From contig NC_043005.1 of assembly GCF_006345805.1 (NCBI RefSeq), positions 89,652,001 to 89,716,000 of the forward strand: a stretch of DNA of 64,000 nt. Direction: 5' to 3'. The translations under genes were made by a program, and so were the position numbers. Under the pieces are notes generated by a model. That model was not told the DNA's origin and did not search any database. It saw nothing but the letters and a program-made list of their open reading frames with translations. Positions 2,236 through 41,507 of the stretch are shown here, in pieces. Within the stretch, counting starts at the first letter, position 1. Each line of letters opens with the position of its first letter. This DNA is from Octopus sinensis (Eukaryota).

Positions 2236-3350
2236 GTAAGTGCACCATCTTTACACTTTAATAACTGATGTTGGGGGTTTTTGGCTTTGAATGAATATCA
2301 CAACATCCCCCCATAAACAATATTGGTTTCATCATCATCCTTTCCGCCTATAATTGCCACAGGTATATGTAAGTGATTGCCTTCAGGCATTGGTCTGGCT
2401 GGGTCACATCAGTGCCAGTGTGTTGCTTGTTTGTTGTATGAGAGACAATATTATGAATGGCATCTAACATGAACCACATCATCATCATCACCACTACCAT
2501 CATCATCATCGTCATTATTGAAACCACTACTGAAGAAAATTCCAAGGTTGTGAAAGAGTTCTCATGTAAATCACATCACTGACTGGAAATGACTTTGATA
2601 TTTAATTGAAGATTTTCTCTACCATTTTCTAGCGATGCCTAATCAAAATATTTGGTCTTAGACTGAAATCGGTTTTAAAAGTGATGTGTTAAACCAAGCT
2701 GGTTCTTATTCTGCAGACCTACACATTATTACTGTTCATGTCAGGCATACATTACGGAATACATTACGGGATGTGTCTTCCCTTTTTTAAAGACAGGTGA
2801 TATGTGCTATAAGTTTAGCTATTGTTTCTAGCAAGTCAAGCATCCATTATAGAAGCTTCCCCCCTTGGTCAAATGTTCACATTTTCACATGATGTGGTAG
2901 TGAGAAATTTTTTGGTGAATACAGGGAAATAATCCTTTAATACTTAAGTCACACCCCTTATTTGTCTTTTTTATTCTTAACTGAATGTAGAAGGTGAACG
3001 TGCATGGCTTTGTGGTTAGGGTGTTGAACTCAGGATCTCACAATTGTGGTTTCAATTCCCAGACTGAGTGCTGCATTGTCCTCTTGAGCAAAACCCTTTA
3101 CATTGGTCCAGTTCACTCAGCTATGAATGAGCAGCAACCTTATGGCAGCCTGGGGCAGTGTGGTGACCTTGGTCACTCATGCACCAGAGAAACTGGCTAA
3201 CTGACCCCATGAGTTCTAAGACTTGAGACAAGAATGTCCTCATGTTGATGATGATGATGATTGGTTTAAAAGGAATATTTTTAGTAATTTATGTCACAAC
3301 AAAATGTATGTTTTTACTTATTTATTTCTCTCTCTGCATTTCTTTGAAAG

Positions 3351-3437
3351 CTTTGCAAAGTCGAGCGTCTATCCCAGAAGTTACAGATCATGAGTTTTGT
3401 GGGTAACTACCACGATAACATTCACCATTTGCAGCCA
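3351..3437 (+). CDS. FMNL: Formin-like protein, FH2 exon
   Basis: aaag|...|gtaag; 87 nt encoding LCKVERLSQKLQIMSFVGNYHDNIHHLQP (FMNL 'KVERL..M.F.GNF' motif); not in the ORF track. Confidence 0.92.
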
Positions 3438-4175
3438 GTAAGTTGATTTACTTCCGTTTCACTTGGTTTTCAGATCCTTTCACCAGAATCATGGCTTCTT
3501 TTTCAGCAAGAGTTGTTAATTTGTACTGATTACAAATAATTAACAATGGACTTTCGTTTGTAGCAATGTTTTAATTGAATCATTTACGTAAAACGGAGTA
3601 ATTTCAATCAGTAAATGCAGTTCCTTTGTCTGTCCACTGTTGGTGGGGCAACCAAAGTCATTAACATTATTTGCACTTGTTGGAAAAAAAGTCAATTCAA
3701 ACATAATTTACATCAATTCAGTCCTTCAGCATTCAGATTATTTTCTCAAATGTAATGCTTATTTATTCACATTGTTTTGGAATTAATCGTGTGTTAGTTT
3801 ATAGCTTTGAGATTTTGATGTAGGGTTGGTGTAAGAGGCCAGATCTGGCCAATTTGAACATAAAACACAATATTTTGGCCAGATATGGCTGGATTAAGTG
3901 CTAAATTAAAGTTATTTTTTTCTTTATTCTTGTTTACAAAACCCAGAAAACCTTATTTCTGTCCTCACCTCCAACTTTATTCTATTTTTGTGATATTTCT
4001 CTTTCTCTGATTTCCCAACTTGCCAAGTTTTAGTCATAACAGATTTTTTGCAAGAAAATCTTGCAAATTGGATTCCTTTTTTTTTTGTTCCAAATCCTAA
4101 TCACTAATAAAAGTTTTTTTGTTATTTTTGTTTGTTTTTCTAATCAATTTTTTGTTTTGTTTTTCTCTCTTTCAG

Positions 4176-4244
4176 CAACTAAATGCATTGATTGCTGCTT
4201 CTATGTCCATAAGAAACTCTCAGAAGGTCAAGAAGATGCTGGAG
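4176..4244 (+). CDS. FMNL: Formin-like protein, FH2 exon
   Basis: ttcag|...|gtaagc; 69 nt encoding QLNALIAASMSIRNSQKVKKMLE. Confidence 0.93.
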
Positions 4245-4387
4245 GTAAGCCTCCACCCAATTTCTCTCTCTCTCTCTCTCTTATTTTGCATTCTTTATTT
4301 TTCTGAAGACTGCCACTTAACTCTCTATTATTCTTCATACAAAAATATTTCACAAAGGACATAAAAACATTTATTTTCTGTCCACAG

Positions 4388-4468
4388 ATTATTTTAGCAT
4401 TTGGTAACTACATGAATAGCGCGCGGAGAGGTCCAGCATACGGATTTAAATTGCAAAGTCTTGACATG
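4388..4468 (+). CDS. FMNL: Formin-like protein, FH2 'GNYMN' exon
   Basis: cacag|...|gtaag; 81 nt encoding [27 protein letters not shown], the FH2 signature GNYMN...GFKL.SL. Confidence 0.96.
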
Positions 4469-5192
4469 GTAAGATGTAACATTTTTATCAATATTCATTG
4501 GTGTGTGAAGTATCTTCTGTAGATGAAGAGAAGGACCAGTCATTAGGATAAGAGCCAAGCCATTGTCAAGGGTTTTTCCATCTTGAGAGATCTTCAGTGA
4601 TTGTGAGATGCTACAACTGAAGTGAACCTGAGGGTAGGAGGTGAGTGAGGGAGGGGTGTGGGATATGAGGATGTTTTCTTTGTATCAGTATTAGTGTTTC
4701 AGTTTTGTTGCTGCTGAAGGAGACAGAATTGGTGTGTCCCCACTGGAGGATACTTTTCTGGTCCATGTTCATGGGGTCAGCGTGGGTTTGTTATGAAGTG
4801 TCTAGATTGTGAGTGGATGATGTGAGCATGTCTGTGTGTGGGAGGTAGAGAAGAAAGAAGTGTAGTGTTTAAAGGTGGGTGCTGTTTGATGTAGCAGCAA
4901 GTAAGTGATTGAGGAGGACAAAACCAGACCTTCATTTGGGAATGCTGAAGATTTTATAATGAAAGACTCTTTTGAGTCCTATCAACAGACACAATCCAAA
5001 AGACTATAGTAAACATATTATAGAATTTGGAACATTATAGAATTTGGAACGCATACCTTTATTCTGTGTACTTTTCAAAAACAAGTTCCTTTGGGAAGCT
5101 TTTAGAAGACAGTTACCTTTGCTTGTAACAGAAGAAGATTTAAATATTTTGATGGAGATTGTCTATATTTGAATGTTTGTTTTATTTTCCAG

Positions 5193-5322
5193 TTGTTAGA
5201 CACAAAGTCCAGTGATAAGAAAATCAACCTCATGCATTTCTTAGTTCATACAGTTCAAGAGAAATTCCTTGACATTATAAACTTTGAAGCTGAGTTGAGA
5301 TTTATTGAAAAGGCTGCTCTTG
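5193..5322 (+). CDS. FMNL: Formin-like protein, FH2 exon
   Basis: ccag|...|gtaagt; 130 nt encoding LLDTKSSDKKINLMHFLVHTVQEKFLDIINFEAELRFIEKAAL, ends phase 1. Confidence 0.94.
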
Positions 5323-6965
5323 GTAAGTCTATAAGTTTTCTCTCATTTACACTGCTGTCATTATTGTACAAAGGCTGAAGTCTGCTCTACTCATGAACAC
5401 ATCCATAGCAAATGCCTCCTTTCAAGTATCATTTATTTGACATTTTACTAATTACCATCCATCTTCAAATAATTAATCTAGGATGAAAATGTCTCATTTT
5501 ATAGATAACGAAGGACATTTTACTCTGTTTTGAGAATCTGATGCATTGAATTCAGGCAAGTTTAGCATGTACAATAAATCAAACAGGATATTTTGTTTTA
5601 AAGATCAGGGTATGAATTAGTGCTTTATTTTTTTTTAAGAGGAATGGAGTGAAATATTCTGGGGAATAGAATCAGTCAGATATATCAAATTTTAAGAATT
5701 TTTGATAGGGGCTAGAATTCTTGGAATATACTGTAACATCTGTCTTAAACCCCTTTCAAATATTCTTATCTAAAAGTGGTAAATCATTGGGTATTGGAAA
5801 ATGAATTGCATTGAAGCTAAATATAACAATATATAGTAAGATTGCAAATATTAAAAGGGGTTTTGTTGTGAGATGAAATAATTAACCAGAATGATTAAAT
5901 GGGCTAAGTAAAAGAAAGGAAAAGAGAACAATGCATGGAATCTCTCTCTTGAAGACCTGCTATCATCAGGAAGTGACATTGAAGTGGAACATTTTACTCT
6001 CAAAAAAGAAGGAAAAAGCTGAACATAGATGAACAGAAGAGGCTCATTTGATTCTTGTGAGAATTTTGGTCTTTCTTGAAAATGGACTTCATATCTTAGC
6101 TTTCCTCATCAAATTGTTTTCCCTTTTTAGAAATACACAGTAGAAATACTTAATAGGTGACATATTCTTCTTTGGTAAATGTACCAAGTTGTACCCATGC
6201 AGGACCATTTGGTCATTACTTAGACACAACAAACAATATACAAAAGGTATCTGAAGATCTGTTGGAATATAGAACTACAGTATCTATCAATATTAAAAAA
6301 AAAAATTATTACTAATTTATGTATTAAAAGGAAACAATCTTAGATACATTCAACCATAAATATATAATTGTCAGGAACTCCTTAGCAATGAGTAGTTAGT
6401 TTCACACATACCATCTGCTTCTTATTTTTTCACTGCATTGAATCACTATGCAAGTCATTGACAGTTTCTGTGTGGTTTAACATTCCATGAGAGAATGTTT
6501 TATGTCATAACCAGTGTGTTTTAATACCAAATTACCTATTAAATATTTGTTTTCCTTACATTCTCTTCTGTTAAGTGATTCCCAGCATTTTCCTACTTTT
6601 ACTCTAACCATAGTGTAATAGGAAGTTCTTGACAAACTAAACTGCCATGTCTGCTCCAGTTTCTGTACACTCGTGTTTCTTGAAGAAGATCAAACACTCA
6701 CTTCAAGTACTTGTAAATAAATACCACGGGGAGGTATACCATGACTTCTAGTTCTTCATATAAATCAGTGAAATCTATTTTGATAGCTTGCCATGTTGGT
6801 TCAAATCTTCTTTAAAGGAACTAGTCTAAAGTCCAGTCTGTCTTCATTCTACAAAATGTTCCGTAAATTCATAGAATGTCATAACAACTCTTGGATTTAA
6901 TGGGAGTTGAAAATTACTCTTTCTATTTTGTAACTTCAGTAAATATTTTAATTTTATATTTTTAG

Positions 6966-7138
6966 TGTCATTAGAAAACATCATGACAGATGTTCATGAG
7001 CTTGAGAAAGGAATGGAAATATCTAAGAAAGAATACCAGACCCGGAAGGAGCGAGATGCTCCAATTGTATTGAGAGATTTCTTGGGAAGTTCTGAAGAAA
7101 AGTTAAAAAAACTTATAACTGATGTCAAAACAGCAAAG
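6966..7138 (+). CDS. FMNL: Formin-like protein, FH2 exon
   Basis: tttag|TG completes V; VSLENIMTDVHELEKGMEISKKE...LKKLITDVKTAK|gtttgg; phases are compatible with both neighbours. Confidence 0.93.
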
Positions 7139-8502
7139 GTTTGGATGAGGTTTCTTTTAATCATGTCTCATTTGAGATTCCTTCTACAAATGTCTTTCAT
7201 ATTCTTCATTAACTTTGTTACCGTTATTATTATTAAGGAGGTCAGCTGGCAGAATTGTTAGCATGCCAGACAAAATGCTTAGTGGCATTTCAAATTCTGA
7301 GTTCAAATTCTGCTGGCATCCGCTTTTGTCTTCCATCTTTACAGAGTTGATAAAATAAATACCAGTTGAACCCTGGGGTTGATCTAATCGACTTCTCTCT
7401 GCCCAACAAATTTCAGGACTTAATCCTACAACTGAAAGAATTATTATTATTTTAATATAACCAGCATCTGTAGATGTATCTCCTGATGTTTATGTGTGGT
7501 GATGCTTGTCACATTATTGCTTCGTTTTTATGACTCACCAGGACCACTTTTCATAGCCTCAGTGTCCATTCTGTCTTCACAGATTCCAATGGAGACATGA
7601 ATCATTTTGTTAACCGGCCAGTTCCATACTCTGTTGCCCTTATGAATTAAATGTTGAGTCTGATGGAATCCTTTTTTTCTTATATTTTGTTGCATAGAGT
7701 TGAGACCTTTAAGAGCTAAGCATTTTTGTTAGATTTTGAACATTTCCATAAATAATTTGGTTGAAAGTTTTTCTAACAAACTGTTTTTGAAATGGCCCAA
7801 ATTTTTCTTGTGAGTGAAAACTACATTTGAATTTAAGTTGATTAGATAATTAGAAGTCATTCATTAAAATCTAAAACAAATCAGTGGAACATATCTGTGG
7901 ATAAAAGGCTTTACCTAAATTATTTTTCAAATTGACTTTGAGAAAGTTGACCAAGAACTGCTTTCTTTCTCATTCTAAGAATTTTCTGTCCAACTACATT
8001 CAACTACGACACCCACCAGTTAAATATTTATGCTGAACTCCTGTAGTTGTAGGCACCGAACCGCTTGCTCAGGGTAACTTGTGAACACAGAAACCAATTA
8101 AAAATAAGGTCTTGATATTTCAAAGAAATCATTATTTCCACTTTCACGTCTCTCTCAGATCATGGAAGAGGTAATAAGCTGTGCTGGATATGTTACTGGT
8201 CCTTCAAAGTTCCAAGTTTACTTAAAAATCCATCTTTCATTTTTGCAGGATTAATAAAATGCCAGTAATATTGATTTGGTATAAAGTTTAGAATAAAAAC
8301 CATCTCCACCTCTTTTAGGAATAGAAGTTAAGAGATTATATATTAAGATCAGAAATGGAACACAAGTTTTGGTAGATACATTGAGAGAAGAAATGGATAT
8401 TTTGCTTTGACTCTGTAATTAGTTGACATGTTAATTATTTCAAGTTATAAATTTCACCTATGTGCGTTTTTTTTTGCCTTTTTTAATGTTTTCTATTTTC
8501 AG

Positions 8503-36894: not shown

Positions 36895-38140
36895 TCATCA
36901 TCATCATCATCGTCGTTTAACGTCCGTTCTCCATGCTAGCATGGGTTGGACGGTTCGACCGGGGTTCTGGGAAGCCAGAAGGCTGCACCAGGCTCCAGTC
37001 TAACCTGGCAATGTTTCTACAGCTGGATGCCCTTCCTAACGCCAACCACTCCGTGAGTGTAGTGGGTGCTTTTTACGTGCCACCTGCACAGGTGCCAGGC
37101 GGGGCTGGCAACGGCCACGGTCAGATTGGTGTATTTTATGTGCCACCGGCACGGAAGCCAGTCGAGGCGGTGCTGGCATCGGCCACGAGTCGGATAGTGC
37201 TTTTTACGTACCACCAGACCAGGGATCCTGGCTGGTTCAATTCGATTTCGATTTCGCTTGCCCCAACATGTCTTCACAAGCAAAGGGGGTTGGCAAGGGT
37301 GCCTGTCGTACGGTCGCATTGGAGTATTTTACGTGCCACGGCCACGAGTCGGATAGTGCTTTTTACGTACCACCAGACCAGGGATCCTGGCTGGTTCAAT
37401 TCGATTTCGATTTCGATTTCGCTTGCCCCAACATGTCTTCACAAGCAAAGGGGGTTGGCATGGGTGCCTGTCGTACGGTCGCATTGGAGTATTTTACGTG
37501 CCACGGCCCCGAGTCGGATAGTGCTTTTTACGTACCACCAGGCCAGGGATCCTGGCTGGTTCAATTCGGTTTCGATTTCGATTTCGCTTGCCCCAACATG
37601 TCTTCGCAAGCATGGGGGGTTGGGATGGGTGTCTGTCGTCGGATGAGGTTCTATATTGACTTCGCTTGCCTCAACCGGTCTTTGTGTCCAAGGGAGGAAA
37701 GGCATTCATAAGTGGGCTGGGCTCACTTGTCCTGCCTGGTCTTCTCACGTACAGAATATTTCCAAAGGTCTCGGTCTCTGGTCATTTCCTCAGTGAGGCC
37801 TAAAGTTCGAAGGTCGTGCTTCACCACCTCGTCCCAGGTTTTCCTGGGTCTACCTCTTCCACGGGTTCCCTCAACTGCTAGGGATTGGCACTTTCTCACA
37901 CACCTATCTTCATCCATTCTCGCCACATGACCATACCAGCGCAATCGTCTCTCTTGCACACCACAACTGATGCTTCTTAGGTACAACATTTCTCTCAAGG
38001 TGCTAACGCTCTGTCGAGTATGTACACTGACATTACACATCCATCGGAGCATACTGGCTTCATTCCTCACGAGCTTACGCATGTCCTCAGCAGTCACAGC
38101 CCATGTTTCGCTGCCATGTAGCATGGCTGTTCGTACACAC
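36895..38140 (-). mobile_element. RTE-clade LINE, 5'-truncated 3' end
   Basis: ORF 37723-38140 AMLHGSETW...RRLRWYGHVARM...GRGRPRKTW; 3' UTR ends in a (GAT)n tail; internal ~160-bp triplication at 37181-37640. Confidence 0.9.
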
Positions 38141-38602
38141 GGAGTAAATCCAAACTTACAGGGAATATATATATATATATATTTGTGTATCTGTGTTTGT
38201 CCCCTCACCACCATTGCTTGTCAACTGATGTTGGTGTATTTATGTCCCGTAACTTAGCGGTGAGGTAAAAGGGATCAATAGAATAAGTACTGGGGTTAAT
38301 TTGTTCAACTAAAAGTGATGCTCCAGTATGGCCACAGTGAAATGACTGAAACAAATAAAAATATATATATATATATAATAGAAATATTAAAATTACTAAG
38401 TCTCTCTAAAGGAGATTACGGCAGCGTTACTGGATATTAATAGTTATCGCCATACTAATATGGCAGTCTATAAATAAGACTAAAGCTGTCGCTGATTAGC
38501 TCCAAGAGGCCATTGCCTCTAGCTAGCTATTTGACATGAACCTGCGTCCATTACAACCTTCGAACAGGGGAGGTCAGCCGCTTCACCTTGCTAGTCAGAC
38601 AT

Positions 38603-38643
38603 CTGCAGACATGTTTCAGGGTTGTTGCCCTTTATCAATGCAG
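38603..38643 (-). ncRNA. Minimal type I hammerhead ribozyme, copy 1
   Basis: Minus strand ctgca-TTGATAA-aggg caacaa ccct-GAAAC-at-GTC-tgcag: helix I ctgca/tgcag, helix II aggg/ccct, palindromic helix III acatgt, GUC site, U3-A8 core variant. Confidence 0.8.
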
Positions 38644-38670
38644 CGTAGCCAGAACCAGCAGGTGTCGCTA

Positions 38671-40225
38671 TTATCTTTATTATAGGCACGATGGCCCGAA
38701 TTAAGAGGGGACATTACAAAACAGGACGTGGGGTACATAAATTAAAAGAATCGAAAAATATGATATGAAAATGAATTAAATGGAATGGCTTACGAGCCCC
38801 CCAAAACTCGTAGTTTCATTTAAAATACAGTTCTGCCATACTGGGCGTTCGTCTGTAATGTATTCTATTAACTTCTCCTGGTCTACAATCGCTGGCAAAC
38901 TGTCGTAACAGATATATTGCATTTCACAAACAGTCGAAAACTCACTTTTCAATTTCATAAATGTCTCTTTCTCTACAACCGCCGACTTCACTTGGTCATC
39001 AAATATTTTTGGGTTCAGCCTAACCCTGATTAAACCTTTCTTACCTGCCAGTCTTTTTTCGATTTCTTTGTCTTTCATATACAATATTACTACCTTAAGA
39101 TTTTTTCCTTCGGGTCTTCTTCCTTCCTTACATACTTTTAACTTCTCTTCCACTCTGCTTCCCCATTCTTGGTCTGCCGTTAAATTTGCCGGTTCTCTCG
39201 CTTTCGCTTTTGTATTCTTATCTTCGCACGTCCGATCTGCCATCTCGTCTGTAGTCTTATTTTTCGCTTTTTTCTTTTTTTGAACTTTAGGTGGTGATTC
39301 CACCCTCGCTCTCTTTCTATCTTCTTTTCCTTCTGTTTTTTCCATTTCGTTCTCCAACTCGTCACCACTTTCCACTTTCCACATTTTCTGTGTTTACACA
39401 TTTTTCATCTGCCATTTGCAATATCTCTGTCCGAGCTTCCAATGTTCTTGTCGGACACACATCTTTCATGTGGCCTCTAATTTTACACTTGTAGCACACT
39501 GGTGGTCTCCCCTCCACCACGACTCTGAGTCGAGTCTCGTCGGGGAACACCAACTCCTCTGGGATATTATACAGGTCTGGTATGGTTATATGAACCAAAG
39601 CCTGCACCGCATAACCCCACCACTGTACATCTTTCGATTTTTCTACTTTCAATATTTCAACGCTTTCTTTGCAGTTGAATACCACTGCCGCTAAGATTCT
39701 TTCCATGTTCAGCTCCGGCGAAATCTTACTGATTCGTATTCTTACTGCCCTTTTTCCATGATAACTTGGTAATAACATCCATTTTTTTCTGTTTTCAGTA
39801 TATGCTTCGTCTTCGTTTTTAAAATGAACGACCACTGTTACATATTTTCTACCTCTATTATAGAAGGTAGGTTCTCCTTCAACTCCATTCAGACAGCGCT
39901 CAATTTCCTCTATCGGTGCCACTTCTACTTTCTTTGAAGCCACGTTCCATGTTCTGTATGTTATAATACGTTTCTCTGCGTCTTTCGCTTCTTCTTCAGG
40001 TGGTGTGATCTTCACACAGTCACCTTCTCTCTTCAAGCTGTCGAAATAATTCTTCAAAATCTCCTTCTCAACTGTAACTTCTTCCAACTGTAGCTCGCTC
40101 GCAGCCAGGCCCTTGCCTGCCGCTCCCGCATACGTTTGGGTTTGCATTTTTGAGAAAAAAATTCCCAACGCTGCAACCGCTTCCACCAACGAATTCGATC
40201 TCACAACCGCAACTCAACAATAACG
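38671..40225 (-). mobile_element. ORF1-only (HAL1-like) non-autonomous element of the L1/Tx1 group
   Basis: Short 5' UTR, Gag-like ORF, short 3' UTR ending ...ggccatcgtgcctatAATAAAga, similar to the 3' end of the Tx1 copy near 46950; no RT. Confidence 0.65.
38776..40147 (-). pseudogene. Tx1-type ORF1/Gag-like nucleic-acid-binding protein with CCHC zinc knuckle (one frameshift)
   Basis: ATG at 40147 (MQTQTYAGAA); VVVEGRPPVCYKCKIRGHMKDVCP = CX2CX4HX4C; the two ORFs (39362-40204, 38776-39384) join into ~454 aa if a 7-nt tandem duplication (gtggaaa x2 near 39375) is removed. Confidence 0.75.
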
Positions 40226-40435
40226 TTTTATTTACCTAGGAGATTACGGCAGCGTTACTGGAAATTAATAGTTATCGCCATACTAATTTGGCAGTCTTAT
40301 AAATATAAGACCAAAGCTGTCGCTGATTAGCTCCAAGAGGCCATTGCCTCTAGCTAGCTATTTGACACACGAACCTGCGTCCATTACAACCTTTGAACAG
40401 GGGAGGTCAGCCGCTTCACCTTGCTAGTCAGACAT

Positions 40436-40476
40436 CTGCAGACATGTTTCAGGGTTGTTGCCCTTTATCAATGCAG
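40436..40476 (-). ncRNA. Minimal type I hammerhead ribozyme, copy 2
   Basis: Identical 41-nt motif to copy 1. Confidence 0.8.
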
Positions 40477-40793
40477 CGTAGCCAGAACCAGCAGGTGTCG
40501 CTACTGACCGTCTGTTCGAAAATTTTATTTACCTAGTTACAGTGGAATACATCCACTTGTTTTCAATAATAGAAATATTAAAATTACTAAGTCTCTCTAA
40601 AGGAGATTACGCCAGCGTTATTGGGTATTAATAGTTATCGCCATACTAATATGGCACTCTATAAATAAGACTAAAGCTGTCGCTGATTAGCTCCGAGAGG
40701 CCATCGCCTCTAGCTAGCTATTTGACACGAACCTGCGTCCATTACAACCTTCGAACAGGGGAGGTCAGCCGCTTCACCTTGCTAGTCAGACAT

Positions 40794-40834
40794 CTGCAGA
40801 CATGTTTCAGGGTTGTTGCCCTTTATCAATGCAG
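40794..40834 (-). ncRNA. Minimal type I hammerhead ribozyme, copy 3
   Basis: Identical 41-nt motif, 358 nt from copy 2. Confidence 0.8.
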
Positions 40835-41507
40835 CATAGCCAGAACCAGCAGGTGTCGCTACTGACCGTCTGTTCGAAAATTTTATTTACCTAGTTACAG
40901 TGGAATACATCCACTTGTTTTCAATAATAGAAATATTAAAATTACTAAGTCTCTCTAAAGGAGATTACGCCAGCGTTACTGGGTATTAATAGTTATCGCC
41001 ATACTAATATGGCACTCTATAAATAAGACTAAAGCTGTCGCTGATTAGCTCCGAGAGGCCAGCGCCGCTAGCTAGCTATTTGACTCACGAACCTGCGTCC
41101 ATTACAACCTTCGAGCATAAATGTGTGTGCATCTGTATGCATGCCAGAGTGTATTTATTTTTTTACCCTTGTCTTGATGGCTGTAAACAAGCATCCCTGT
41201 TATACAAGCAGTGTTGTATGTGTTCCAGTCTGGTGTGGGAAAATACCTGGCCAAAAGGAACAATTATTTTGCCTATAGGTGACGGTTGGCAATGAATTCC
41301 ATCTGAGCCATGCAATTATGAAATGGTGGGGTTCGTTAAATGATGATGATAATGTGTCTGTGTGTACACAAGCATAGATATACATTAGACAGGAAGGTCA
41401 GATTCAATGATAATTTAGCTACTATCTTTAGCAGGTCAAGATAGAATCTGCAAGATTAAAATCATTGAAATTTAATGAATGCTTTAAACGCCTGCCATTT
41501 GCAATGG

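Follow-up and report, generated by a model that had tools for sequence, protein, structure and literature searches.

The open reading frame (ORF) that lies between two hammerhead ribozymes at this octopus locus is, we hold with considerable confidence, a decayed relative of a LINE that retains ORF1 alone. Its family inserts at one fixed position, which is found in hammerhead repeats and at the start of U2 genes and is likely to be a promoter start. The unit that the element forms with its flanking repeats is present at four loci and was probably re-copied by Penelope-type machinery.

Organization of the Locus

The window (the whole 64,000-nucleotide stretch of Octopus sinensis DNA analyzed here) belongs to contig C9 of the 2.72-Gb genome assembly that was searched. 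Its features are collected in Table 1. Positions in the 358-bp repeat unit are given as q, read on the minus strand, with q1 at window position 40953. In minus-strand order, the insertion begins with q197-358, continues through unit A (q1-358), unit B (q1-353) and a 16-nt junction into the 1550-bp ORF element, and ends with unit C (q93-358), q1-30 and (TA)n. The point at which unit C stops in (TA)n is the fixed 3′ end of the repeat family, and most stand-alone copies have the identical end point.

Table 1. Features of the composite insertion in the window, in minus-strand order.
Feature	Positions	Strand	Remarks
5′-truncated unit (positions 197-358)	40954..41114	-	5′ end of the entire insertion
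Unit A, complete (358 bp)	40596..40953	-	with hammerhead copy 3 (40794-40834; C17 at 40799)
Unit B, upstream (positions 1-353)	40238..40595	-	
Match to snRNA proximal-element-like motif	40549..40560	-	divergent; about 55 bp upstream of the target; putative function
Unoccupied target site in unit B	40494..40505	-	likely transcription start, putative +1 near 40505 (+/-2)
Hammerhead copy 2	40436..40476	-	predicted cut after C17 at 40441
Composite junction	40222..40244	-	unit position 353, then 62-73, then the end of the element's leader
ORF1-only retroelement	38672..40221	-	most of the T-rich 5′ leader absent; AATAAA at 38681-38676; no poly(A); ends set by the flanks
Degraded ORF1	38776..40147	-	two predicted RRMs, CCHC knuckle, charged linker, extra alpha/beta C-terminal domain
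CX2CX4HX4C zinc knuckle	39455..39496	-	Pfam zf-CCHC E = 0.011, under the curated cut-off
7-nt tandem duplication	39365..39378	-	frame-shifting; private to the window locus
Unit C, downstream repeat copy	38375..38670	-	positions 93-358 plus a 30-nt tail
Hammerhead copy 1	38603..38643	-	type I, U3-A8 core; predicted cut after C17 at 38608

The 5′ junction of the window copy is without q354-358, q1-61, q74 to about q105 and most of the leader. The 66 bp missing at the composite junction include the tail and the promoter-like motif, and the target duplication was lost as well, through two deletions. The earlier note on this DNA held that the element replaces about 19 bp of the unit and has no clear target-site duplication. 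The replacement stands, with 66 bp more absent from the upstream unit; the lack of a duplication is true of the window copy and untrue of the family, most relatives having one. Besides the unoccupied target site in unit B, the window has a second copy at 40852-40863, and the same sequence is duplicated around insertions in other copies of the unit.

Three other features of the window may be recorded. At 56544-56649 (plus strand) is a copy of U6 snRNA whose 5′ end is altered; it has no upstream motif in the 120 bases read and is likely a retrocopy. A 165-bp tandem repeat (37180-37639; 2.8 copies, 95%) adjoins the 3′ end of a LINE at 37723-38136 (minus strand), which we take to be RTE-like.

The ORF1-Only Element and Its Partner LINE

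In a search for the ORF element family, 56 matches came from the 40 candidates scored out of 392. Full-length copies start with a T-rich leader and end directly after AATAAA, without poly(A). The window ORF opens with the ATG at 40147. Its knuckle, its 7-nt duplication, the AATAAA that follows it and the absence of a reverse transcriptase (RT), all seen in the earlier note, were found as described there; the claim that the duplication is the only break was not, since two further lesions are present. One is a 17-nt deletion with a 2-nt insertion (about 39805-39788; net loss of 15 nt, or 5 codons). The other is the loss of the stop codon at 38838-38836, the last ~20 of the ~454 residues being read-through. 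The window copy is a dead relic.

Contigs from two other runs match the window locus yet keep the 17 nt missing at 39788-39805, so that this deletion may be allelic or an assembly error. Ungapped contigs also cross the 7-nt duplication in runs labelled as two different organisms, and the insertion may thus predate their split. A different account of the ORF, as a spliced-out intron, was rejected: the predicted junction is absent from the genome, and the acceptor is poor.

The protein, described earlier as Gag-like, is a LINE ORF1 with tandem RRMs and one knuckle. HMMER found 355 relatives at E<=0.001; a word-indexed protein search found no relative. The CX2CX4HX4C knuckle is present in 25 of 60 aligned relatives, and a feature search returned CCHC and ZCCHC3-type RNA-binding domains. 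The structure prediction proposed earlier agrees with tandem RRMs, the model being that of an unbroken natural relative; with an alignment of 60 sequences it reached a pLDDT of 80 and matched tandem-RRM proteins, and a single-sequence fold gave a pLDDT of only 35. A retroviral or LTR-type Gag, with capsid fold and LTRs, was considered and rejected: the model fits tandem-RRM proteins, and the nucleocapsid match covers the knuckle only.

The search for intact frames and the dN/dS estimate that had been proposed were both informative. Among the natural copies, four have an unbroken frame, of 440-448 aa, and in a comparison of 15 open stretches most of the pairwise dN/dS values between subfamilies fall at 0.15-0.35. 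ORF1 is under purifying selection in the source lineages.

The same genome has an autonomous partner, a LINE with APE, RT and zf-RVT domains, whose relatives of ~1150 aa have the same domains. It combines a CCHC-bearing ORF1 with an ORF2 of the form APE-RT-zinc finger, and from this architecture we take it to be a Tx1 element. The window ORF matches its ORF1 with a probability of 99.8% (E 6e-28, 29% identity), the knuckle region aligning too. Its leader and tail are related to those of the ORF element (0 and 1 of 500 shuffles were as good), and its 3′ end has 2560 candidates in the genome. The ORF element has a single ORF homologous to a LINE ORF1 and no ORF2; as a family it is multicopy, with fixed ends of its own and with target duplications (lost in the window copy). 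It is an ORF1-only (HAL1-like) derivative of an L1/Tx1-type LINE of the same genome, and the shared ends and target suggest that it was mobilized in trans by the partner LINE. At another locus (L063, 2268-5564, minus strand), the neighbour of an ORF element is an APE-RT LINE of a second family, which is more distantly related and has a homologous ORF1.

The Hammerheads and the 358-bp Repeat

The three hammerheads of the window, one in each of units A, B and C, are co-oriented, of type I, and built alike: a U3-A8 core, a 5-bp helix I, a 4-bp helix II and a helix III that is a 2-bp palindrome. The U3-A8 variant is known from Penelope-like elements, and a short palindromic helix III is described as the dimer-dependent type, which needs a second ribozyme close by (PMC4209133). 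Among 15 distinct related motifs, 93% of cells are paired and 10 of 13 pairs have two-sided changes. Kinship among the motifs inflates a shuffle test of such covariation, and slid controls, in which 28-49% of cells are paired, are the better guide. Rfam at its gathering scores did not detect the window hammerheads, and their folding energy is no better than that of shuffles (z -0.3 to -0.5). Cleavage is predicted from the sequence. As the earlier note had it, two of the ribozymes bracket the ORF; cuts at copies 2 and 1 would release a piece of 1833 nt (40440-38608).

A first look at the whole genome gave 2477 candidates for the 358-bp unit. Like non-LTR retrozymes, the repeat is built of short units in tandem, every one of which has a type I hammerhead and no ORF. 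Its copies form partial tandems, in many of which a 5′ piece is inverted; they have a one-sided tail, and their fixed 3′ ends, at q30 or q328, lie for the most part in (TA)n. Such tandems, 5′ inversions and tails are among the hallmarks of Penelope-like insertions (bioRxiv 10.1101/2021.04.23.441226), and two internal initiation sites account for such tails in work with purified Penelope protein (PMC11167929). A query with one GIY-YIG family gave 13,732 candidates; of the 150 loci listed, 70 were examined, and these had neither a hammerhead nor similarity to the 358-bp unit. With no Penelope partner in these 70 loci, the Penelope re-copying step is argued from structural hallmarks.

A Single Target Position

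Thirty ORF-element loci were examined, 26 with a 3′ end and 4 without, and their flanks were classed by eye. The 3′ flank is the start of a hammerhead unit in 19 of the 26 (from at least four families), a duplication plus another copy in one, U2 +1 in one and other sequence in five. For the partner LINE, 30 flanks divide into 24 hammerhead units, four duplications plus another element, one U2 and one other. One homologous position is abutted by 21 of the 26 ORF-element 3′ ends and by 29 of the 30 LINE ends, and this position lies in several ~350-bp hammerhead repeats, in a tandem insert there, or at U2 +1. Target duplications of 14-18 bp are usual at both types of element.

A pattern search for the element end joined to the target of the window unit gave 16 exact matches (control 0). 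At nine places in the window-type unit the order is plain: intact upstream unit, duplication, leader, element, duplication, downstream unit. Three of the nine have stacks of two or three elements. At several insertions, the two flanks have locus-specific variants in common; in other pairs of duplications the 5′ copy is consistently different, as if carried by RNA. On the ORF-element tree, target labels are interleaved, and one subfamily switches between target families.

The first of two options in the earlier note, that a HAL1/Tx1 element targets this ribozyme repeat, is thus upheld and widened to several repeat families and U2, with an autonomous partner in the genome. The flank survey suggested there finds recurrent junctions at one position, and a one-off chance insertion, the outcome that would have spoken against targeting, fails.

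Some insertions depart from the common pattern. At L030 / L217 (C4:74.93 Mb), one of the five ORF-element ends classed as other, an ORF element with a 17-bp duplication lies just behind a GIY-YIG ORF, in an abundant Penelope-type family in which we saw no hammerhead and no promoter motif. At L010 (1440-1510) and L011 (C20, a duplicated segment), past the LINE 3′ end, a hammerhead unit ends exactly at the predicted cleavage base and is fused to the 5′ end of an ORF element. This join is possibly a cleaved RNA end fixed in DNA, and represents one event only.

The Target as a Likely Promoter Start

Either ATCAGT or ATCATC is present at -56 to -61 in every one of the 48 U1 and U2 genes examined (of 50 loci fetched, two U2 loci, whose upstream DNA is foreign, were set aside). 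With a position weight matrix (PWM) built from the 8 distinct upstream types, 19 of 22 target flanks, that of the window unit included, have their best hit in 200 nt between -51 and -60, although the repeat families are related and the 19 amount to about four independent cases plus U2. The exceptions are L015, L030 and one LINE flank. The copy of the motif at 40549 in the window has the best PWM score in 200 nt, equalled in 3 of 300 shuffles; a second divergent match lies at 40907-40918. Because the target position lies 55-60 bp behind the U1/U2 upstream motif, a PSE-type spacing, if with a divergent motif in the window copy, it is likely the point at which snRNA-type promoters start transcription. 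A hammerhead repeat with an snRNA-type Pol II promoter has been described in newt satellite 2 (cited in PMC2220036).

Insertions were found in 0 of 20 U1 loci and 1 of 30 U2 loci. At L287 (G000:C3:19723500-19731800; 2450-7900), a full-length LINE lies within a U2 gene of a U2 cluster, and the order is upstream motif, U2 +1 to +14, the first 12 nt of a hammerhead unit and the LINE leader. From this 12-nt head, it is likely that the donor RNA started at the target site of a hammerhead unit.

Element 3′ ends at L289 (1841 onward) and L003 (3042 onward) are followed by sequences that start, like U1, with ATACT; the one at L289 adjoins a U2 gene. Rfam, run on the odd flanks, named U2 alone and nothing at these two, which are possibly unannotated snRNA-type RNAs.

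Four Copies of a Composite Unit

The composite junction occurs at exactly four genomic loci, two on C1 and one each on C9 and C16 (in searches for exact matches and with <=2 mismatches; control 0). The four composites are 96-98% identical and form a shallow clade with modest support (0.74). They are unlinked, on three contigs, and their outer flanks, 5′ truncations and inversions differ. Three of the four stop at a repeat end point in (TA)n and two have a 5′ inversion. Both the window copy and L002 run into (TA)n at q30-31. The copy on C16 is chimeric, part of it belonging to another subfamily; (TA)n bounds it on either side, and its 5′ unit is inverted. The 5′ unit of L003 is inverted too; contrary to the scheme, this copy stops at the 3′ end of the ORF element and not in the repeat. 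Since this one junction is found, together with Penelope-type ends, at four unlinked loci, the composite did move as one piece, most probably as cargo of Penelope machinery.

Three loci without the composite junction look like further cases of Penelope-type re-copying. In L212, the inverted unit and the 3′ unit have 16 differences in common; in L208, a truncated element is joined to q33; and L216 (G000:C26:104500-113500), apparently an instance of large cargo, is a whole 5.4-kb LINE between two hammerhead units, of which the 5′ one is inverted.

The second option of the earlier note was a composite whose self-cleaved, possibly circular 1833-nt RNA encodes its own chaperone or packaging protein. 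Half of it survives: repeat, ORF and repeat were copied as a unit to four loci. A self-excising, coding RNA of 1833 nt as the mobile form is not supported. The piece is without unit positions 354-358 and 1-61 (66 nt), and positions 354-358 plus 1-30 form the end of two of the four composites, namely the window copy and L002; hence the 1833-nt circle was not the sole template, though the RNA could still contribute through template switching. A retrozyme monomer should hold all the integrated sequence and recur in tandem; the 1833-nt composite does not, and a head-to-tail tandem of it was found at none of the four loci. An apparent skip of 1833 nt in contigs from other runs was dismissed as ordinary unit sequence mapped across two copies of the unit.

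Mechanism and Alternatives

The course of events that we favour starts from a high-copy, retrozyme-like repeat with fixed (TA)n 3′ ends, partial tandems and 5′ inversions. In each unit an snRNA-type promoter would start transcription ~65 nt before the ribozyme cut. The ORF1-only RNA, transcribed from the host promoter, would use the endonuclease and RT of the LINE, with its own ORF1p acting in cis. One insertion lost its duplication and 66 bp of the upstream unit, a loss that may have fused it into a read-through unit resembling pLTR-ORF-pLTR. Uncut or partly cut RNA of this unit, with template switches, would then have been reverse-transcribed from the 3′ initiation sites of the repeat, and the copies decayed.

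Could the four composites be accounted for more simply? Segmental duplication of one locus would explain their exact common junction, and is contradicted by the three contigs and by the differing outer flanks, truncations and inversions; we consider it negligible. Scarcely more credible is that a single chance insertion, or a handful of them, multiplied by hitch-hiking on the repeat and so produced all cases of an element in a repeat. Hitch-hiking does happen, as the composite, L208, L212 and L216 illustrate. However, at least four repeat families and U2 are involved, each with its own duplicated sequence; the duplication recurs between copies in tandem stacks; labels are interleaved on the tree; and U2 insertions with an intact upstream motif contradict the idea. 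A protein-coding retrozyme, in which the ribozymes free the 1833-nt RNA, which circularizes, is translated into its own chaperone and serves as template for new copies, has more in its favour and is still improbable. Two co-oriented, covarying hammerheads do bracket the ORF of a composite found at four loci, and units B and C of the window have private variants in common, as from repeated copying of one template. Among the composite ORFs, 30 of 79 substitutions are synonymous (21 expected, p 0.02, omega about 0.6), but this mild excess counts 9 recurrent changes more than once; it would fit an open-frame source copy, and function is not thereby shown. Against such a retrozyme are the segment that its RNA lacks and two copies end in, the want of head-to-tail monomers, and the private lesions or truncation that affect all four ORFs. 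Moreover, helix III is of the type described as dimer-dependent (PMC4209133), whereas the partner ribozyme is 1.8 kb off. A self-sufficient coding circle of 1833 nt is unlikely, and re-copying of the composite as a Penelope passenger is the reading that we retain.

The chances are more evenly poised on how the site is found, a matter on which the alternative is compatible with the rest of our explanation. The elements may be the same and the LINE endonuclease may simply read the target DNA, an AT(C/A)G...CC/GG-like site common to U2 and the repeats, the promoter motif being a bystander; we give this an even chance. Target choice is generally credited to the endonuclease (PMC4494074), the targets are loosely alike, L030 has no motif, and U1, with the same promoter motif, was hit at none of its 20 loci. 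Yet the duplicated sequences vary widely with target family while the distance to the motif stays at 55-60 bp, and the tree includes an ORF-element subfamily that changes from one target family to another. We put forward more tentatively, and as less likely than not, that the LINE and its ORF1-only satellite dock, possibly by ORF1p, on factors at the +1 of snRNA-type Pol II promoters, that retrozymes serve as landing pads, and that a coding, retrozyme-like unit arose that travels on Penelope machinery.

Relation to Known Systems

HAL1 (half-L1) is a non-autonomous LINE derivative that encodes ORF1p alone (PMC5753468). The octopus element is likewise LINE-derived and encodes only ORF1p; it differs in being of an invertebrate, RRM-RRM-CCHC in build, site-specific, without poly(A) and, in ORF1, only ~29% identical to the co-targeting LINE examined. 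Target-specific LINEs of the Tx1 clade include Tx1L in Tx1D, Keno in U2, and Tx1-Mar, with SINEU, in a Mariner (PMC4494074, PMC4640811), and their known targets thus include other transposons (PMC4494074). The partner LINE resembles them as an APE-RT LINE with target duplications, tandem stacking, multicopy RNA genes or transposons as targets and, likely, transcription from the target, but its chief targets are hammerhead repeats. Keno and Utopia are described as inserting before U2 nucleotide 39 and leaving U2 from 39 on downstream (PMC4640811), whereas the duplication of the partner LINE in U2 spans about -4 to +14, which is not the Keno site.

Metazoan non-LTR retrozymes are described as non-coding tandem repeats whose AT-rich units, of ~350 bp, all have a type I hammerhead, and Penelope-like movers have been proposed for them (PMC7229834; bioRxiv 10.64898/2026.07.22.740005). 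The 358-bp repeat is like them in unit size, tandem form and ribozyme content; unlike the retrozymes described in those sources, which have no coding cargo, its units are a LINE target with inserts of 1.6-5.4 kb. With Penelope-like elements, as their published descriptions go, it shares partial tandems, a 5′ inverted copy, a tail at one end, two 3′ end points, (TA)n targets and the U3-A8 variant, but it has no RT or GIY-YIG ORF, and 60 nt separate its end points, against 30-40 in theirs. Newt satellite 2, as described, is a precedent only for a promoter in a hammerhead repeat, and we know of no LINE that targets it. Ty3 and the Dictyostelium TRE5 integrate position-specifically at the starts of Pol III small-RNA genes via promoter-bound factors. 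The octopus LINE would be alike if tethering applies to it, although those elements target Pol III genes.

In the literature searched (Repbase and the supplementary tables of Tx1 targets lay outside the search), no LINE is reported to target retrozymes or snRNA-type start sites, and the main text of an octopus repeat annotation does not mention hammerheads, ribozymes or snRNA (PMC13282606). Each part of the system has precedent; the combination was not found in that literature.

Implications

If the analysis is right, animal retrozymes carry promoters and are copied Penelope-style with kilobase cargo, on genomic evidence, and LINEs have a new kind of target, the start site of snRNA-type promoters, those of retrozymes included. 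With this system one could test cleanly whether promoter-bound factors, and not the DNA sequence, can direct an APE-type LINE to its target, and also what ORF1p does for an element that has nothing but ORF1. Docking on promoter-bound factors, if true, would account for the conservation of a bare ORF1. It would make thousands of retrozymes safe, self-multiplying landing pads, and it would join two classes of retroelements in three nested layers of parasitism.
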